Source: an uncultured delta proteobacterium (GTDB lineage: Bacteria; Desulfobacterota; Binatia; UBA9968). From it: a stretch of DNA of 35,579 nt. The translations under genes were made by a program, and so were the position numbers. Positions 12,170-22,839 of the stretch are shown piece after piece (position 1 is the stretch's first letter; each line of letters opens with the position of its first letter). Where the stretch lies: NCBI GenBank assembly GCA_963755715.1, contig CAVWLW010000020.1:1-35579 (forward strand). The letters run 5' to 3'. The notes below the pieces were generated by a model. That model saw nothing but the letters and a program-made list of their open reading frames with translations, was not told where the DNA came from and ran no database searches.

Positions 12170-14464
12170 ATGAAAACAAAGCAAAGCTATGCGGTGGCGG
12201 GGACCAACGCGCACCGCGTCGACGGCATCGAAAAAGTCACGGGCAAGGCGGTCTACACGACCGATCTCCAACTCCCCGGCATGGCGCACGCGCGCATCCT
12301 CAGAAGTCCGGTGGCGCACGCAAAGCTCGTCAAAGTCGAGGCTTCCAAGGCGAAAGCGTTTCCGGGAGTGATCGCCACGCTCACCCGCGACGATATTCAA
12401 GCTTTCAATTACAAATACGGCGCGACCTACAAAGATCAATCGATCGTCGCGGTCGACAAGGTACGCTACGTCGGTGACCCGGTTGCGGCCGTGCTCGCTG
12501 ACGATCCGGCGATCGCGGAAGCGGCGCTAGAGCTGATCGAAGTCGAATACGAAGAGCTCCCTAAAGTAACGAACATAGAAGAAGCCACGGCGCCGGGCGC
12601 CGCTCTGGTGCACGAAGCCGGCGTTGCTCGTGCGGAGTTACGCGGTTCGGTTTACGGCGCGCCGGAAAGATTCAACGGCACGAATATCTGTTACTACCTG
12701 ACCTTCGCTCGCGAAGACGTAGCCAAGGGCTTTGCCAAGGCGGATCATATCTTCGAAGACACCTTTCGCTTTCAAAAAGTCCAGCACTATTCTTTGGAAG
12801 CGCACAACAACATCGTTTATTACGACGGCGAGAAGCTAACGGTCTGGGCATCCTGCCAAGATCCGTTTACCTTGCGCGATCATCTTTCCGGTATCTTTCG
12901 GCTGCCGCTCAGCCGCATCCGCGTCATCGTTCCCTACGTCGGCGGCGGTTACGGCGGCAAGCTCTACGTCAAGGGCGAACCGATTTCAGCAGCATTAAGC
13001 TGGATGACCCACCGGCCGGTAAAGCTTCAGTTCTCGGTCAATGAAAGCTTCAAGACGATTACGCGCCATCCGGCACGAGTCACCATCAAAACCGGCGTCA
13101 CCAAAGACGGTAAATTGATCGCGCGCGACTGCCAAGTTTACATGGACACCGGTGCCTACGCCGACGCGGGTCCGCGGGTGACCCAGAAAGCGGCCTATCG
13201 CTCGCTCGGTCCTTATAAGATTCCGTATGCGAACGTCGAAGCTTACGGCGTTTATACGAATACAGTTCCTGCCGGCGCGTTTCGCGGCTTTGGCGCGCTG
13301 CAAGTGACCTGGGCGTATGAATCGCAGATGGACATGATCGCCGAGCGCCTCGGTCTCGATCCATTGGAATTTCGTCTCAAAAATTTGCTCAAGAAAGGCG
13401 ATCTCTACACGGTCGGCGACACGCCGGTGGATTGCGATTTGAAAGAAGGACTGCTCAAAGTCGCCGATGCGATCAAGTGGCAAGAAAAAAGTAAGACGCC
13501 CAATCGCGCCAAGGGTCTCAGCTGCTGCATCAAAGATGCCGGCGGCACCTACAAAGTCGCCGGCGCCACGGTGAAGATGTCGTCGGACGGCAGCGTGGTC
13601 CTGCTCACCGGAACGGTGGAAATAGGGCAGGGGCCACGGACAGCGTTGAGCCAGGTGGTCGCCGAAGAACTTTCGTTGCCCATGGACCAGATCACCGTCG
13701 CCCAGCTCGATACCGACGTGACACCCTACGATATCTCCACCAGCGCGAGTAGTTCTATGGTGGTTATGGGAACAGCGGTTTTACGAGCGGCCGAGGACGT
13801 CAAGAAGCAACTTCTGCAGTGCGCTGCAAAGGTTCTCAAACAGAAGGCCGGCAACCTCAGATTACACAATGGTCACGTCGTCGTTGGCGAGCGTCCGGTC
13901 ATTTCATTCAGTAAAGTGATCGTTGATTTCTTTGGCAGCAAGGCCGGAGAAATTATCGGCAAGGGCCTGTACAAGGATAAACGCAATGCCAAGGCGGTCT
14001 TGGGCTCGACCACAACCTTCTGGGAAGTCGGTTGGGGCGGCGTCGAAGTCGAGGTCGACCCTGACACGGGCGTCATTCATCTGCTCAAATATGTTTCCGC
14101 CTGCGACACCGGCAAAGCGATTAACCCCGAGCAGTGCATCGGTCAAGACGAGGGCGCGGTGATGTTCGGCATCGGCCACACGCTAATGGAAGAGATGGTT
14201 TACGAAGACGGTCAGTTGCTGAACGGCAATCTCGTCGACTACACCGTGCCGAGATTCAATGACGTTCCCGATAACCTGGACACCATCTTGATCGAAAACG
14301 GGAACGGTCCTGGTCCGTTCGGCTCCAAGGGCATCGGCGAAGGCGGGCTGTTGCCGGTCGCTTCGGCGATTGCCAATGCGGTATCGCGCGCGGTCGGCGT
14401 GCGCATTCAAGAATTACCTTTGACGCCTCCGAAGATTTGGCGCGCCATGCAGGCCAAAGCCTAG
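12170..14464 (+). CDS. Xanthine dehydrogenase family molybdopterin-binding (large) subunit
   Basis: RVDGIEKVTGKAVY, ILRSPVAHA, DKVRYVGDPVAAV, VGGGYGGK, GAFRGFG, EIGQG, GSKGIGE (catalytic Glu), LPLTP. Confidence 0.93.
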   Translation: MKTKQSYAVAGTNAHRVDGIEKVTGKAVYTTDLQLPGMAHARILRSPVAHAKLVKVEASKAKAFPGVIATLTRDDIQAFNYKYGATYKDQSIVAVDKVRYVGDPVAAVLADDPAIAEAALELIEVEYEELPKVTNIEEATAPGAALVHEAGVARAELRGSVYGAPERFNGTNICYYLTFAREDVAKGFAKADHIFEDTFRFQKVQHYSLEAHNNIVYYDGEKLTVWASCQDPFTLRDHLSGIFRLPLSRIRVIVPYVGGGYGGKLYVKGEPISAALSWMTHRPVKLQFSVNESFKTITRHPARVTIKTGVTKDGKLIARDCQVYMDTGAYADAGPRVTQKAAYRSLGPYKIPYANVEAYGVYTNTVPAGAFRGFGALQVTWAYESQMDMIAERLGLDPLEFRLKNLLKKGDLYTVGDTPVDCDLKEGLLKVADAIKWQEKSKTPNRAKGLSCCIKDAGGTYKVAGATVKMSSDGSVVLLTGTVEIGQGPRTALSQVVAEELSLPMDQITVAQLDTDVTPYDISTSASSSMVVMGTAVLRAAEDVKKQLLQCAAKVLKQKAGNLRLHNGHVVVGERPVISFSKVIVDFFGSKAGEIIGKGLYKDKRNAKAVLGSTTTFWEVGWGGVEVEVDPDTGVIHLLKYVSACDTGKAINPEQCIGQDEGAVMFGIGHTLMEEMVYEDGQLLNGNLVDYTVPRFNDVPDNLDTILIENGNGPGPFGSKGIGEGGLLPVASAIANAVSRAVGVRIQELPLTPPKIWRAMQAKA

Positions 14465-14538
14465 ATTCATCTGCTGCTTTAACTATTCGCAAGCATTACT
14501 TGAGCTTTGCCATGGCGACTTGACGGGGACCATCGAAG

Positions 14539-15042
14539 CTAAAGATCCAAGACTTCGCCGCACTGCTTGCAGGTGACCAACGCGGGATTTGACTTGAGCG
14601 AGCTTGTGGCGCGGCTGACTGCGTCGCCCGGATCGTCGAAACGAACTTCAGTCTCATAGAGATTATTGCCGCATTTTTCGCAGGGCCAGATAAACCGGTC
14701 TATTTCCTCTTTGCCGCGCTGCCGTTCCACCACGTAAGTCCATGAACCGTCCGCGCGCCGGGGTGAATGCGGCGTGTTCTTGGGCAGCAGAAAAATATCG
14801 CCGGCTTGGAGCGTCGCCAGCTCGCGCTTGTTGTCTTGGATGTAGTGAAGATTGAGATCGCCTTCGAGTTGATAAAAAATCTCATCGCCCGGATTGATAT
14901 GAAAATCCTTGCGCCGGTTGGGGCCGCGGGTGACGAAAGCGATGAAGTCCGAGTCCTGCCAAATGACCCGGCGCTGGCCCCAGTCGCCGCGGTTTTCATC
15001 GATCCATTGTTTGAGATTGAAACCCTTTAAGTGTGGAAACAT
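14539..15042 (-). CDS. nbaC: 3-hydroxyanthranilate 3,4-dioxygenase
   Basis: GPNRRKDFHINPGDEIFYQLEGD and PHSPRR (His/Glu/His iron ligands), VVERQR, rubredoxin-like CEKC and CKQC. GGAGG precedes ATG 15042. Confidence 0.85.
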   Translation of the reverse strand: MFPHLKGFNLKQWIDENRGDWGQRRVIWQDSDFIAFVTRGPNRRKDFHINPGDEIFYQLEGDLNLHYIQDNKRELATLQAGDIFLLPKNTPHSPRRADGSWTYVVERQRGKEEIDRFIWPCEKCGNNLYETEVRFDDPGDAVSRATSSLKSNPALVTCKQCGEVLDL

Positions 15043-15108
15043 AGGACCTCCATCCGCGATCATCACTATAGAATTGCGCCGGGGCGCGAATCAAGCTAAA
15101 TCAAACTT

Positions 15109-15603
15109 GTGTTCACGGTCAAAAAACAACGAGTAACGTTGAAGACAGGTCGGGTCGGTTTAATCTCGGACACCCACGGCTTGCTCCGGCCCGAAGCGTT
15201 GGCAGCGTTGCAAGGCTCCGAGCTGATCATCCACGCCGGCGACATCGGCAAACCGGAAGTCCTTGCTTCGCTCAAGTCAGTAGCGCCAGTCCTTGCGATC
15301 CGCGGCAACAACGACCGAGAACCGTGGGCCAAAAAAATCCCCGACATTTTGCATCTGCACGTCAACGGCGTTTGCTTGTTTATCATCCACAACGTGAATG
15401 ATCTGGAAGTCGATCCTGCGGCGAAAGGATTCCATGCCGTCATCAGCGGCCACTCGCATAAGCCGAGTCTTACCAATAGTGACGGAGTAATCTTCCTCAA
15501 TCCAGGCAGCGCCGGCCCACGCCGCTTCAAGTTGCCGGTGGCGCTGGCGCGGCTTAGGATTCAACGAGAAATAGTAAACGCACAAATCGTTGAGCTGTTG
15601 TGA
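15109..15603 (+). CDS. Metallophosphoesterase, YfcE/MJ0936 family (start may be TTG 15139)
   Basis: ISDTHG, IHAGDIG, RGNND, SGHSH, NPGS. Confidence 0.9.
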   Translation: MFTVKKQRVTLKTGRVGLISDTHGLLRPEALAALQGSELIIHAGDIGKPEVLASLKSVAPVLAIRGNNDREPWAKKIPDILHLHVNGVCLFIIHNVNDLEVDPAAKGFHAVISGHSHKPSLTNSDGVIFLNPGSAGPRRFKLPVALARLRIQREIVNAQIVELL

Positions 15604-15772: not shown

Positions 15773-15782
15773 AGTCACAGTA

Positions 15783-15817
15783 ACCTTTTAATTCGATCCT
15801 GCGAGGTCGAAAAAGGG
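15783..15817 (+). ncRNA. PyrR-binding loop (anti-antiterminator) of the pyr leader RNA
   Basis: CCUUUUAA-UUCGAUC-CUGCGA-GGUCGAA-AAAGG: U-rich lower stem, CNGNGA hexaloop and near match to the ARUCCNGNGAGGYU consensus, directly upstream of pyrR. Confidence 0.85.
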
Positions 15818-15856
15818 CGTCATGACAAAATCCATTCAACAAATCATATTCGCTCG

Positions 15857-15891
15857 AAGACCCTCCCGGTGATCCGCGAGGGTCTTTTTTT
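15857..15891 (+). terminator. Attenuator terminator of the pyr leader
   Basis: AAGACCCTC-C-CGG...CCG-C-GAGGGTCTT hairpin with a T7 tract ending directly at the pyrR ATG. Confidence 0.85.
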
Positions 15892-16443
15892 ATGGCCGAG
15901 ACAAAGAAAATTCTGCTGGAGCGCGCCGATCTTGCGAAAGCCGTCCATCGGATGGCGCGCGAGATCGTCGAGAAATGCGCGGCGCCTAGCGAGTTGGTGC
16001 TGATCGGCATTCGCTCGCGCGGGGTCCATTTGGCGCGACGCTTGGCCCGTAAGATTGAGGAAATCGACAAATTCACGCCGCCGGTTGCCGTGATCGACGT
16101 CACGCCGTACCGCGATGATCGGAGGCAAGAGCAAGACGGAGCGATGGTTGGCGCGATCGAGATTCATGCGGCGGTCGATGACAAAACGATCGTGTTGATC
16201 GACGACGTAATTTTTCGCGGCCGCACGATCCGGGCGGCGATGGAAGCGGTGGAGCGGATTGGCCGGCCCAAGCGCATACTGGTCGCCGCACTGATCGACC
16301 GCGGCGCCCGGGAGTTGCCGATACGCGCCGATATTGTCGGCAAAAACATCGACGTTGGTGCTGGGAAGAGAGTGAACGTGCTCTTGGAAGAAGCGGATGG
16401 GATCGATCAGGTGAATCTTGCTGATTGGCAAGAAAAAAAGTGA
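15892..16443 (+). CDS. pyrR: Pyrimidine operon attenuation protein PyrR (standalone copy; altered PRPP loop)
   Basis: HRMAREIVEK, LIGIRSRGVHLARRL, IDVTPYRDD, VLIDDVIFRGRTIRAA, LIDRGARELPIRADIVGKN. Confidence 0.93.
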   Translation: MAETKKILLERADLAKAVHRMAREIVEKCAAPSELVLIGIRSRGVHLARRLARKIEEIDKFTPPVAVIDVTPYRDDRRQEQDGAMVGAIEIHAAVDDKTIVLIDDVIFRGRTIRAAMEAVERIGRPKRILVAALIDRGARELPIRADIVGKNIDVGAGKRVNVLLEEADGIDQVNLADWQEKK

Positions 16444-16466
16444 CTTAAGTTGAGATATTTAAAGCG

Positions 16467-18416
16467 ATGCGTAGCTTGATTTCGATCGCCGATTTGACCA
16501 ACGAGGAAATCGAAGAGATTTTTTCTCTGGCGGACGAGGCGGAGCAATTGCGCGCCGCCAGACCGGCGAGCGGCCAGATCATGGCTACTCTTTTTTACGA
16601 ACCGAGCACGCGCACCCGTTTATCATTCGAGTCGGCAATGCAGCGCTTGGGCGGCTCGGTGATCAGTTGTTCGGACATGAAATCATCGTCGACGGCAAAA
16701 GGTGAAACGGTTGCGGACACCGCCAAAGTCGTTTCGAGCTACGCCGACGTTTTGGTGGTGCGGCATAATTGGGACGGCGCAGTGCAGGCGATGGCCGAGC
16801 ATGCCGACGTGCCGATCATCAATGCCGGCGACGGCGGCCACGAACATCCGACCCAAACACTGTGCGACCTTTACACCTTGCGCAAAGAGAAGGGCGAGCT
16901 CAAAGGGCTGACGGTGGTCGTTTGTGGCGATCTAAAAAATGGCCGGACGATTCACTCGCTGGTGTTCGCGCTGGCGCGTTTCGGCGCCCACGTCGTCACT
17001 TTGGCCGCGAGCGGCATGGAGTTACCGCAATATGTGATCGAGCGTCTGGAGCGCGAATACGGCTACGGCCTGGCGCCGGTCGCGTCGAACGACTTGAGCG
17101 CGGTGGTAAAGGAAACCGATGCATTGTATTTAACGCCCAAGCAGCCGCACCAGTTGGCGCTTTTCACGCAAGTTGACGAAGTCATTCAAGCGCGGCTGAA
17201 CACGATGGCGAGCGGATTGCGCTATGACGCCTTCTACATGACGCGGAAACAAAAGGAGCGCATGAAGGAAGGCACGAACGACGCCAGCTATCCGACGATC
17301 GGCGCGGCTTTTCTGCGCGAGCAGCGTTTTCAGGACACGGTGGTGATGCATCCGCTGCCGCGCGTCGACGAGCTGTCCCCCGAAGTCGATAAAGATCGGC
17401 GTGGAATATATTTCAAGCAGGCGGCTTACGGCGTGCCGGTACGCATGGCGCTGCTCAAGTTTCTCTTCGACCGGCGCCACGAGACGATGCCGCGGTCCAG
17501 GGGAGCGGCGATTTCATACGAAAGTCCCGAAGCGATTGGCCCGCAATGTCGCAATCCGAATTGCATCACGTCAAAAGAGCCGCTGTCCGCGCCGAAACGC
17601 TTCGAGCTTTTTGCCATCGGCGAGAGCGGCTCGGTGATCTTGGGTTGCAAGTACTGCGATCACCGCTTCAAGGTGCAATACGTTGGCAACGTCGCCGCGA
17701 AACGATACTGCTCCTACGATAACACGCTCACGAGCAATCTAAAGGAGTGGTTGAAGAAAGACGAGTTGGCGATCTTCGACTCGATCAAAGAAGCCGAGGA
17801 GCTGGGCTACGAGCCTTTCAAAAGCGGACCGCAACGAGTCTTGATGGGCGAAGCGGAAATCAAACAGGCGTTGGTCGAGATGAGCGGCCGCATACTGAGC
17901 GATTGCCGCGACGCCGATCGCTTGTTGATCTTGGGTGTGCGCAGCGTCGGATCACAATTGGCGCAACGGCTGGCGATGGAAATCACAAACCAGCGGCAAC
18001 GCAGACCGGAGCTCGGCGAGATCGACATCTACGGCAGCGAAGAGCTGCGCCGGTTAAATCCGGCCGATCCTGACGCCGGGCCACTCAACCTGAAAGACCG
18101 CGAAGTGATTCTTGTCGATGACGTTATTTACACCGGCCGGACGGTCCAGAGCGCGCTGAGCATTATCTTTCGCTCGGGCCGACCGCAGTCGGTGCGTCTC
18201 GCGGTGTTGATCGACCGCGGCCATCGCGAAGTGCCCATGCGGCCGAATTACGTCGCGAAAAATATTCCCAGCTCGGAAACAGACCGGGTGCGGGTCAAGT
18301 TGCGCGGGCTCGATCAGGAAGAGCGCGATCAAGTCGTGATGTATTCGCTCATCAGCCCGGTCGCCGGTTCGCAGCCATTTGCAGCAGCCGGCGATGAAAA
18401 ACCGGCGGCTAAGTAA
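16467..18416 (+). CDS. pyrB: Aspartate carbamoyltransferase catalytic chain fused to a PyrI zinc domain, an Ada-like small domain and a C-terminal PyrR/PRTase domain
   Basis: aa 1-335: [51 protein letters not shown]. aa 361-397: CRNPNCI...CKYC. aa 405-452: YVGN...[14 protein letters not shown]. aa 456-628: [27 protein letters not shown]. Confidence 0.92.
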
Positions 18417-18420
18417 TTTC

Positions 18421-19587
18421 ATGAAAGCGATCCTAGCATTGGCGGACGGCCGAGTTTTCGAAGGCGAATCCTTCGGAGCTGAAGGCGAAGCCTTGGGTGA
18501 AGTCGTATTCAACACGAGCATGACCGGTTACCAGGAGATCCTCACCGATCCGTCCTACGAAGGCCAGCTCGTCGCCATGACCTATCCTGAGATCGGCAAC
18601 GTCGGAGTGAATCCCGAGGACGTAGAATCGCGCCAGCCGTTCATGAACGGCTTCATCGTCAAAGACTACACGCCGCAACCGAGCAACTGGCGCGCTGCCC
18701 AGCCGCTGCACGAATACATGAAAGCTAACGGCATCGTCGGCATCCAAGGCATAGATACGCGCTCACTCGTTCGCCATCTGCGCGATCAGGGGTCACAAGA
18801 AGGCGTGATTTCGACATTGACCGGCAACGCCGATGAGCTAGTCGCGAAAGCGAAAAATTCGCCGGGCTTGATCGGACTGGATTTAGTCCGCGAGGTATCT
18901 TGCAGCGAAGCGTACGACTGGCATCAGGGTATGTGGCAGCTCGAAGACGGCTACAAAGAGCGCGATGGCTCGAAGACCATGTCCAAGCCCAAAAGGAAGG
19001 GAACCTTTGGCGCGCCGGCATTTTTTGTCGTCGCCTACGACTACGGCATCAAATACAACATTCTGCGCAATCTCGCCGAGGCCGGCTGTCGAGTCAAAGT
19101 CGTCCCAGCAGCGACGCCGGCGGAAGATGTTTTGGCATTCAAGCCGGACGGAATTTTTCTCTCCAACGGGCCCGGCGATCCCGACGCCGTGCCCTACGCC
19201 AAAGAAAATGTACAAAAATTGATCGGCAAAAAACCGGTCTTCGGCATCTGTCTCGGCCATCAGATCATGGGCCTCGCGCTCGGCGGCAAAACTTACAAGC
19301 TCAAGTTCGGCCACCACGGCGGCAATCAGCCGGTGATGGATCTCACCACGCGCAAGGTCGAGATCACGTCGCAGAACCACGGCTTCGCAGTCGACGCCGA
19401 TTCGCTCAAAGGCGCGGCCGAAGTCACGCATCTGAACCTGAACGACAACACGGTCGAAGGCCTGGCGCATCGCGAGCTGCCGATCTTTTCGGTGCAATAT
19501 CATCCGGAATCTTCGCCTGGTCCGCATGACGCCGATTATCTGTTCAAGCGCTTTACCGATATGATGGCAAAATATCGAGGCAAATAA
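18421..19587 (+). CDS. carA: Carbamoyl-phosphate synthase small subunit
   Basis: [54 protein letters not shown]. Confidence 0.97.
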
Positions 19588-19593
19588 CGACCC

Positions 19594-22839
<3,246 letters not shown>

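Follow-up and report, generated by a model that had tools for sequence, protein, structure and literature searches.

Aspartate carbamoyltransferase (ATCase) is a textbook allosteric feedback enzyme, and to our knowledge all known regulated bacterial ATCases use either PyrI or a dihydroorotase-like partner. The class B holoenzyme of Escherichia coli is made of two polypeptides, PyrB and PyrI, arranged as two trimers of catalytic and three dimers of regulatory chains (2 c3 + 3 r2), and in PyrI a dimerising, nucleotide-binding sensor (PF01948) lies N-terminal to a four-cysteine zinc domain. Catalytic and regulatory parts may also share one chain, as in the PyrB-PyrI fusion of Thermotoga maritima (reportedly the subject of a 1998 paper by Chen et al.), which carries a complete PyrI with sensor and zinc domain; Treponema denticola likewise has a fused pyrB-pyrI gene. 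PyrR, the attenuation protein and uracil phosphoribosyltransferase (UPRTase) represented by PDB entries 1a3c, 1non, 4p80-4p86, 1ufr and 1w30, is a free protein. Here we analyse a 35,579-nucleotide stretch of DNA (the window) from an uncultured soil bacterium of the GTDB class Binatia (UBA9968; assembly GCA_963755715.1, contig CAVWLW010000020.1, positions 1 to 35,579), in which one gene joins an ATCase catalytic chain to a PyrI-type zinc domain without the sensor, a conserved module of about 50 amino acids (aa) that we call mid, and a PyrR-derived domain of phosphoribosyltransferase (PRTase) fold, here termed PyrR'.

The gene occupies a single 649-aa frame free of internal stops, with the following parts:

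16467..18416, + strand: whole fusion gene PyrB-Zn-mid-PyrR', 649 aa
16470..17471, + strand: ATCase catalytic chain of the PyrI-pairing kind, residues 2-335 (TIGR00670 and NF002032 above cut-off)
17121..17228, + strand: aspartate-domain insertion, residues ~219-254 (extra strand and helix; low confidence in the model)
17472..17522, + strand: linker, residues 336-352, poorly conserved
17523..17681, + strand: PyrI-type zinc domain, residues 353-405 (PF02748; Cys 361, 366, 394 and 397)
17682..17822, + strand: mid module, residues 406-452, a conserved alpha/beta unit of ~50 aa
17823..18362, + strand: PyrR', PyrR-derived PRTase-fold domain, residues 453-632 (NF003549 match)
18363..18413, + strand: C-terminal tail, unconserved and disordered (predicted local distance difference test, pLDDT, <50 at 635-649)

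Pfam recovered OTCace_N at residues 2-139 (174.7 bits), OTCace in two stretches (76 bits), PyrI_C at 360-402 (33.2 bits; cut-off 23.4) and Pribosyltran at 468-592 (57.6 bits), and with NCBIfam it agrees with an earlier interpretation made from the letters alone (the sequence-only reading), which had proposed one 649-aa frame holding PyrB, a zinc domain and a PyrR-like end. NF009916, the model of Thermotoga-type fusions, scored only 89.7 bits on the chain against a cut-off of 800. The AlphaFold2 model of the whole chain (pLDDT 88.2, predicted template modelling score 0.82) is low solely at residues 227-235 and in the C-terminal tail, where mean column identity is 0.48 (residues 623-649); the structures matched by Foldseek with this model were ATCase catalytic chains alone, and these do not inform the packing of the domains.

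The PyrB part scored 298.4 bits with TIGR00670 (cut-off 236.95) and 282.4 bits with NF002032 (263). Motifs STRTR, K78, R99-H100, H127-P-x-Q130, R160, R260/Q262 and HPLPR are all present, at least 90% conserved in 74 aligned homologues and invariant in 43 fusions, bearing out the catalytic residues listed by the sequence-only reading (in what we take to be E. coli numbering). The fusion alignment, in which mean column identity over PyrB is 0.85, derives from 45 related loci in GTDB species genomes; one locus (L059) gave no open reading frame (ORF) under the motif filter, two ORFs below 590 aa were omitted, and the start rule cut several N-termini back to an internal Met. The best PDB sequence matches were the catalytic chains of M. 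jannaschii, P. abyssi and E. coli, and in the Foldseek comparison of the whole-chain model the target-normalised template modelling scores were 0.83-0.88. As judged from motif conservation, the PyrB part is catalytically complete. Relative to the E. coli enzyme it adds an insertion of ~36 aa in the aspartate domain (residues ~219-254), comprising a helix and an extra strand that repeats a D-x-x-Y-x-T motif; HMMER aligned the one corresponding strand of P. abyssi twice, to 218-228 and to 252-265. The insertion duplicates the strand ahead of R-x-Q, just before the equivalent of the E. coli 240s loop, and the duplicated strand was seen in most relatives read or aligned. The region is modelled with pLDDT 53-71 in 10-residue blocks over 201-250, dropping below 50 at 227-235.

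The C-terminal helix of PyrB ends at residue 335 and the first zinc cysteine is residue 361, so that the ~25 residues between them (mean column identity 0.46, measured over 336-359) leave no room for a PyrI allosteric domain. PF01948 had no match in the protein or in the whole genome (93.6% complete), while as a control it matched in 7 of 14 genomes; the absence of the PyrI nucleotide-binding domain, already proposed from the letters, thus stands, and one polypeptide without PF01948 takes the place of the two polypeptides with it in E. coli. The zinc domain scored 33-37 bits with PF02748 (cut-off 23.4), and PyrI_C was found in 34 of the 34 members of one alignment (A2). Cysteines C361, C366, C394 and C397 are invariant in 43/43 fusion sequences, and the asparagines of the C-x-N-x-N-C turn are conserved, N363 invariantly. 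When the zinc domain and mid were modelled separately (pLDDT 84), Foldseek matched E. coli PyrI chains at a root mean square deviation of 1.4-2.1 Å over 43 columns and Moritella PyrI at 3.1 Å; PyrI gave the only convincing matches, the other listed rows (SH3 domains and others) having probabilities of 0.25 or less. The PyrI-like zinc domain of the sequence-only reading is therefore upheld, and its fold is predicted to be that of PyrI.

The mid module is modelled as three strands followed by a helix, a further strand and a second helix (pLDDT ~90). Its mean column identity is 0.73, with an invariant F437 and the motif F-D-S-x-x-E-A-E-E-x-G-Y-E-P, and it is common to PyrR-less relatives of 470-490 aa. 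A search of the ESM Atlas for look-alikes of residues 398-456 gave no usable match. The sequence-only reading had called this part an Ada-like domain, which proved weak: Pfam gave no Ada match in this protein even at E<=10. The Ada N-terminal zinc-binding domain (PF02805) stayed below threshold throughout, surfacing in 6/34 relatives at E<=5, and the four such matches viewed individually scored 12.6-17.8 bits (cut-off 23) and cover profile positions ~39-62, corresponding to the last strand and helix of mid. No conserved Cys occurs within residues 406-452, the Ada cysteine ligands being absent, and no Ada structure was among the 50 Foldseek matches listed (ranks with gaps), which leaves a resemblance to Ada at the level of a motif only, as far as these profiles and alignments indicate.

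PyrR' matched PDB PyrR chains at E 5e-33 and passed, narrowly, one of five PyrR models, NF003549 (144.5 bits, cut-off 138, residues 456-620); the other four of the NF003545-NF003549 set were below cut-off (133.4/230, 131.5/218, 110.7/268 and 85.2/140). It shares 34-35% identity with the free PyrR whose gene lies just upstream and with the genome's third PyrR paralogue. In a tree, a starred branch (98*) separates the free PyrRs from 47/49 fused domains, which fall together, two long-branch rows being unplaced; this tree and the one of catalytic parts below were made with FastTree only, carry long-branch warnings, rely on regex-defined classes and serve as rough indications. On these comparisons PyrR' is an old paralogue lineage, distinct from the adjacent free PyrR.

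What separates the two lineages was read from 42 free PyrRs and 43 fused domains, numbered by the free PyrR of the window, with the register checked against alignments to PDB PyrRs. The loop for phosphoribosyl pyrophosphate (PRPP), D550-D551-V-I-Y-T-G-R-T, keeps D, D, G and T in 43/43 fused domains and R in 41/43; both D104-D105-V-I-x-x-G-R-T and D-R-G-x-R-E-x-P are kept in free and fused forms, the latter as D-R-G-H-R-E-x-P invariant or nearly so in the 43 fused domains. Elsewhere the free PyrR residues give way. Position 16 is R in 36/42 free proteins but most commonly A, S or Q in fused domains, position 20 is R in 40/42 against E, D or Q in 29/43, and position 23 is H in 38/42 against a variable residue. 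Position 28 is K in 33/42 free proteins and D or E in 42/43 fused domains, position 43 is R in 41/42 free proteins and V, K or A in 39/43 fused ones, and R74-D75-D76, present in 42/42 free proteins, is replaced by G, D or E, E. From work on Bacillus PyrR, several of these residues are presumably RNA-binding, pyrophosphate-binding or catalytic, and Savacool and Switzer are said to have addressed the roles of PyrR residues in RNA binding. PyrR' thus resembles known PyrRs in PRTase fold, PRPP loop, D-R-G-H-R-E-x-P motif and a predicted dimer, and differs in being a domain of an enzyme that lacks the free-PyrR residues at 16, 20, 23, 28, 43 and 74-76. The pattern fits a domain that would still bind a 5-phosphoribosyl ligand and would no longer act as an attenuator. 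Of the full PyrR fold asserted by the sequence-only reading, a PyrR-derived PRTase domain with its PRPP loop remains, without R20/H23/K28 and R74-D75-D76.

That separate pyrB, pyrI-like and pyrR genes were fused by a frameshift or misassembly has one argument in its favour: carB in the same window is split over at least three frames, so indels or pseudogenes do occur in this assembly, and for that reason the junctions matter. The sequence-only reading had noted that 17441-17580 holds no stop in any + frame and that an out-of-frame TGA at 17842 overlaps an in-frame ATG at 17844, and both observations were reproduced exactly. In a word-indexed search through 5.8 billion clusters, 7372 relatives were scored, and the best 120 of these are all 642-665 aa long, 75-97% identical over 97-100% of the query, and carry PF00156, PF00185 and PF02729 (by our count 95/120 also have a precomputed PF02748). 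In 14 DNA soil metagenome runs, drawn from 12 studies, the share of sampled words from 16400-18500 that is present reaches 0.90 or more. Contigs from two DNA runs of other studies cover 16400-18181 and 16590-18500, crossing both junctions with 1 and 4 substitutions and 0 gaps, and no indels were reported in the four runs compared. A contig from an RNA-seq library spans 17561-17994, the mid/PyrR' junction, which is a mere hint of transcription since such libraries can hold DNA. With the joined Zn-mid-PyrR' module found in 58 genomes as well, an artefact is hardly credible and can for practical purposes be discarded. A Zn-mid-PyrR' chain standing alone, which would be an analogue of PyrI, was considered and rejected: such forms gave 2683 matches among shorter proteins, and those read were taken as broken gene calls. 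Most of the 120 short matches listed sit on contigs of 1-3 kb. Six of them were inspected, five from contigs of 56-189 kb and the sixth (P0347) from a contig of 17 kb. All six start within the zinc domain or later, and one begins with out-of-frame residues; a 323-aa frame in one further genome (G048) is cut by a contig end.

The 45 related loci (49-97% identity) all come from metagenome-assembled genomes (MAGs), mostly labelled Candidatus Binatia or, in older records, Deltaproteobacteria. A full-length frame is present in 21 of the 24 other genomes of the genus and in pieces (contig ends or frameshift) in two, and in the sister family it is present in 4/5 genomes, with one further partial frame. 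In the third family of the order (11 genomes) no match extended past residue 349, and five genomes had ATCase-like matches of 40-44% identity. Searching with residues 350-649, which surveyed the module in more genomes than were checked for the full-length chain, recovered an unbroken Zn-mid-PyrR' in 58 of the 201 class genomes sampled, at identities down to 39-44% and in 5/20 families (f1 12/14, f2 2/2, f6 1/1, f10 25/25 and f12 18/19). The other 15 families yielded free PyrR alone or nothing with this query (E<=1e-30). In a sample of 401 genomes of the phylum there were seven module matches at E<=1e-45, every one in this class, and 0 in the 387 genomes of other classes at the same threshold. 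The same-genus, sister-family and 201-genome counts include three genomes flagged as unpublished (G005, G121 and G209), whose removal is immaterial.

An exhaustive HMMER search of 50%-identity representatives recovered further fusions of 653-658 aa (43-62% identity). It also gave many proteins of 470-490 aa aligned without interruption from residue 2 to ~452, and proteins of 395-430 aa ending after the zinc domain. These PyrR-less forms (PyrB+Zn, ~400 aa; PyrB+Zn+mid, ~470-490 aa) share the zinc domain and, in the rough tree, the catalytic clade of the fusion, and differ from it in that the chain stops after the zinc domain or mid without a PyrR'. Those with mid share that module, and their HPTQ-to-HPLP spacing (medians 169-173, against 131 in plain ATCases) is consistent with the same insertion. 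They make up a large and apparently unstudied set of ATCases with a PyrI zinc domain fused in cis and no sensor (P0128, P0131, P0133, P0134, P0136, P0138 and others), in which mid is present in some and absent from others and several members are from Chloroflexota MAGs. Among six ~480-aa clusters looked up, the three with organism names are Chloroflexota MAGs (Dehalococcoidia, SAR202 and Anaerolineales) annotated as hypothetical proteins. Under regex-defined classes, HPLP is followed by a zinc ribbon in 57 of the 109 representatives with both catalytic motifs, of which 38 have Zn only, 15 have Zn+mid and 4 have Zn+mid+PRT. The tree of catalytic parts kept 85 rows, dropping those that lacked the three motifs or had fewer than 25 residues before STRTR or fewer than 30 after HPLP. 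In it, the four PyrR'-bearing representatives and a fragment cluster together (support 92, not starred), nested in a group of 40 rows of which 36 carry the zinc domain. Because PyrR-less forms are widespread and PyrR' forms group among them, PyrR' would have been appended rather than swapped in. With its midpoint root and unstarred branch, the tree suggests an order from PyrB+Zn through addition of mid to later addition of PyrR'.

How such a chain might be regulated is indicated by a predicted dimer. Two copies of residues 355-635 gave interaction prediction scores from aligned errors (ipSAE) of 0.62, 0.63 and 0.62, while the best of three controls reached 0.00; the mark used for this score was attained by 20/30 solved homomers and 1/23 solved single chains. 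The runs agree in at least 96% of contacts, with a partner pLDDT of at least 74, and place a symmetric interface wholly within PyrR' (549, 558-569, 574-578 and 588-594). PyrR' is thus predicted to homodimerise, which would supply what cross-linking of trimers needs. In E. coli, by one published account (PMC11601545), the catalytic subunit is bound by the zinc domain, and how far apart the trimers lie is set by the regulatory dimer as nucleotides make it bend. The fusion has, on the strength of sequence and models, a predicted counterpart to the dimerising nucleotide-binding module that E. coli carries on its zinc domain, and by analogy a PyrR' dimer on two zinc domains could act like the E. 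coli regulatory dimer.

Our preferred reading, to which we give a probability of roughly 0.55, is that PyrR' dimers bridge catalytic trimers and sense nucleotides, leaving RNA-level control to free PyrR. Each zinc domain would sit on the catalytic chain as in E. coli, and PyrR' domains would pair two by two, so that two trimers, joined by three PyrR' dimers, would form a (PyrB-Zn-mid-PyrR')6 particle comparable to the c6r6 holoenzyme. A ligand such as uridine mono- or triphosphate (UMP, UTP), guanosine monophosphate (GMP) or PRPP in the retained 5-phosphoribosyl/nucleotide pocket would shift the geometry of the PyrR' dimer and with it how far apart or how free the trimers are. Feedback control would then need no PyrI sensor domain, and control of the operon at the RNA level would fall to free PyrR acting on the attenuator leader. 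As background, PyrR structures with UMP or GMP bound exist, Perica et al. are said to have linked oligomeric states of PyrR to ligand, and Markby et al. reportedly found that an isolated zinc-domain fragment alters the kinetics of the catalytic trimer. More tentatively, and as something we would not yet wager on, this may represent a third kind of regulated ATCase holoenzyme, one that evolved independently. In it a PyrR paralogue would serve as a nucleotide-sensing, trimer-bridging caliper, anchored by a zinc domain of PyrI fused in cis and by a novel adaptor; trimer spacing would follow the level of pyrimidines, and perhaps of purines or PRPP, free PyrR would control the mRNA, and heterodimers might allow cross-talk between the two.

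Several observations weigh against a bridging sensor. PyrR dimers are solved structures in the PDB, and the complex score may reflect memory of those, so that it conveys a likeness to them rather than proof of binding. The sequence-only reading had a PyrR domain replacing the PyrI sensor, of which the missing sensor and the PyrR-like domain are borne out but not the replacement in place: the E. coli sensor is N-terminal to the zinc domain, whereas the putative sensor here is on the opposite side of it in the chain, C-terminal and beyond the extra 50-aa mid module. PyrR-less relatives indicate that a PyrB-Zn(-mid) core works without any sensor. The module is absent from 2/14 f1 genomes and 1/19 f12 genomes, and one same-genus genome (G004; 92% complete, 10 contigs) gave no ATCase match with the 649-aa query, which may be an assembly gap or a real loss. 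Finally, no canonical upp (TIGR01091) was found in the 93.6%-complete genome of the window, leaving room for a catalytic UPRTase role.

That last point opens the case for a bifunctional enzyme, in which PyrR' would be an active UPRTase and ATCase and salvage would be joined for co-expression or for channelling of PRPP or UMP rather than for allostery. The PRPP-binding loop conserved in 43/43 fused domains agrees with this, as does the name of the NCBIfam family ('bifunctional ... uracil phosphoribosyltransferase PyrR'). PyrR' has lost R43 and R-D-D, however, both of which are retained in free PyrRs (41-42/42) and in the third paralogue, making the latter two the better UPRTase candidates, and there is no obvious reason for a salvage enzyme to be tethered by a PyrI zinc domain; we regard a bifunctional enzyme as unlikely, if the least so of the functional alternatives. 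The predicted dimer would equally suit a purely architectural role, in which PyrR' is an unresponsive handle that builds a hexamer for stability or cooperativity, and the existence of PyrR-less relatives with other C-terminal ends shows a core that tolerates different appendages. A mere handle would not be expected to keep the PRPP loop and D-R-G-H-R-E-x-P invariant or nearly so across lineages only 39-44% identical, and we rate this somewhat lower than a salvage role. Lowest among the functional alternatives we place a coupling to transcription, in which PyrR' would bind the pyr leader RNA or heterodimerise with free PyrR, the enzyme thereby titrating or delivering the attenuator as a 'trigger enzyme'. 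Free pyrR and its leader do adjoin the fusion gene (pyrR at 41 of the 44 related loci examined), and the predicted PyrR' interface includes a segment shared with free PyrR (588-594, H-R-E-x-P-x-R), but the basic residues of free PyrR are replaced in PyrR' by acidic or neutral ones. Bridging by nucleotide-sensing PyrR' dimers thus remains the reading we prefer.

All parts of the protein belong to known families; what appears to be undescribed is the way they are combined, the zinc domain fused in cis without its sensor, and mid. In a 2015 transcarbamylase review (PMC4581275) three quaternary types are distinguished for prokaryotes, and a text search for 'PyrR' in it gave 0 occurrences. Full-text searches of literature outside subscription journals and supplements listed no title or abstract on a PyrB-PyrR or zinc-domain-only ATCase fusion. 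Databases label these proteins 'catalytic subunit' or 'hypothetical protein', one IMG record naming a catalytic subunit/attenuation protein, and the present finding corrects that annotation. If a PyrR' bridge is real, it would offer a natural experiment on how far ATCase allostery lies in bridge geometry as opposed to the PyrI sensor, and a case of a domain recruited from RNA regulator to enzyme regulator. With the PyrR-less relatives there is a graded series (PyrB+Zn, +mid, +PyrR') along which each step can be dissected, and a synthetic gene allows the protein to be expressed even from this uncultured lineage.

The fusion gene is part of an operon in the order leader-pyrR-pyrB::Zn::mid::pyrR'-carA-carB, of which the sequence-only reading had missed the leader and free pyrR directly upstream:

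15780..15892, + strand: PyrR-binding attenuator leader, RF00515-like, with stem-loop, terminator hairpin and U run, ending at the pyrR ATG
15892..16443, + strand: free canonical pyrR, 183 aa (NF003549, 191.2 bits, cut-off 138)
18379..19587, + strand: carA, same operon (TIGR01368, 514 bits)
19594..22302, + strand: carB, split over at least three reading frames (NF003671 match)

The free PyrR matched PDB PyrR chains at E 3e-43. Rfam at gathering threshold gave 0 matches over the window, and the leader surfaced only by E-value threshold, scoring 52 bits with RF00515 (gathering 54; E 1.7e-6 to 6.2e-6) over the full model (1-115), with good alignment of the PyrR-binding stem-loop. It is the sole RF00515 candidate in the genome, and at 5 of 10 related loci an element at the same place is above gathering (54.4-60.2 bits). 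The candidate attenuator is of Bacillus type, in a Binatia MAG; among the 14 control genomes RF00515 matched B. subtilis and L. lactis only. In carB, positions 1-514, 507-671 and 673-828 of the NF003671 profile fall in three different ORFs and the final ~230 positions were not located, which reflects either assembly indel errors or a pseudogene.

The fusion supplies the only OTCace_N match and the only PyrI_C match in the genome (7.4 Mb) and is the organism's only ATCase found. A second OTCace_N match, as expected of an ornithine carbamoyltransferase (OTCase), was not found in this 93.6%-complete genome, whereas most same-genus relatives do carry an OTCase-like match with 31-36% identity to residues 2-222. 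pyrC is not on the contig of the window but elsewhere in the genome, 12 kb from the gene of the third PyrR paralogue (180 aa; contig C33:13833-14369, - strand; locus L003 1486-2028), which keeps its T-L-Y-R-D-D loop. The third pyrR follows directly downstream of a 432-aa ORF, with which it overlaps. Inspected by eye, that ORF resembles a metal-dependent amidohydrolase or carbamoylase, no family search having been run, and the third paralogue may be linked to pyrimidine breakdown or salvage. Upstream of the operon, 12170-15603 holds genes unrelated to pyrimidines, namely a molybdopterin oxidoreductase large subunit (similar to xanthine dehydrogenase and 4-hydroxybenzoyl-CoA reductase, below cut-offs), a 3-hydroxyanthranilate 3,4-dioxygenase on the - strand and a YfcE-family phosphodiesterase, and carB is followed by recG and mutS.

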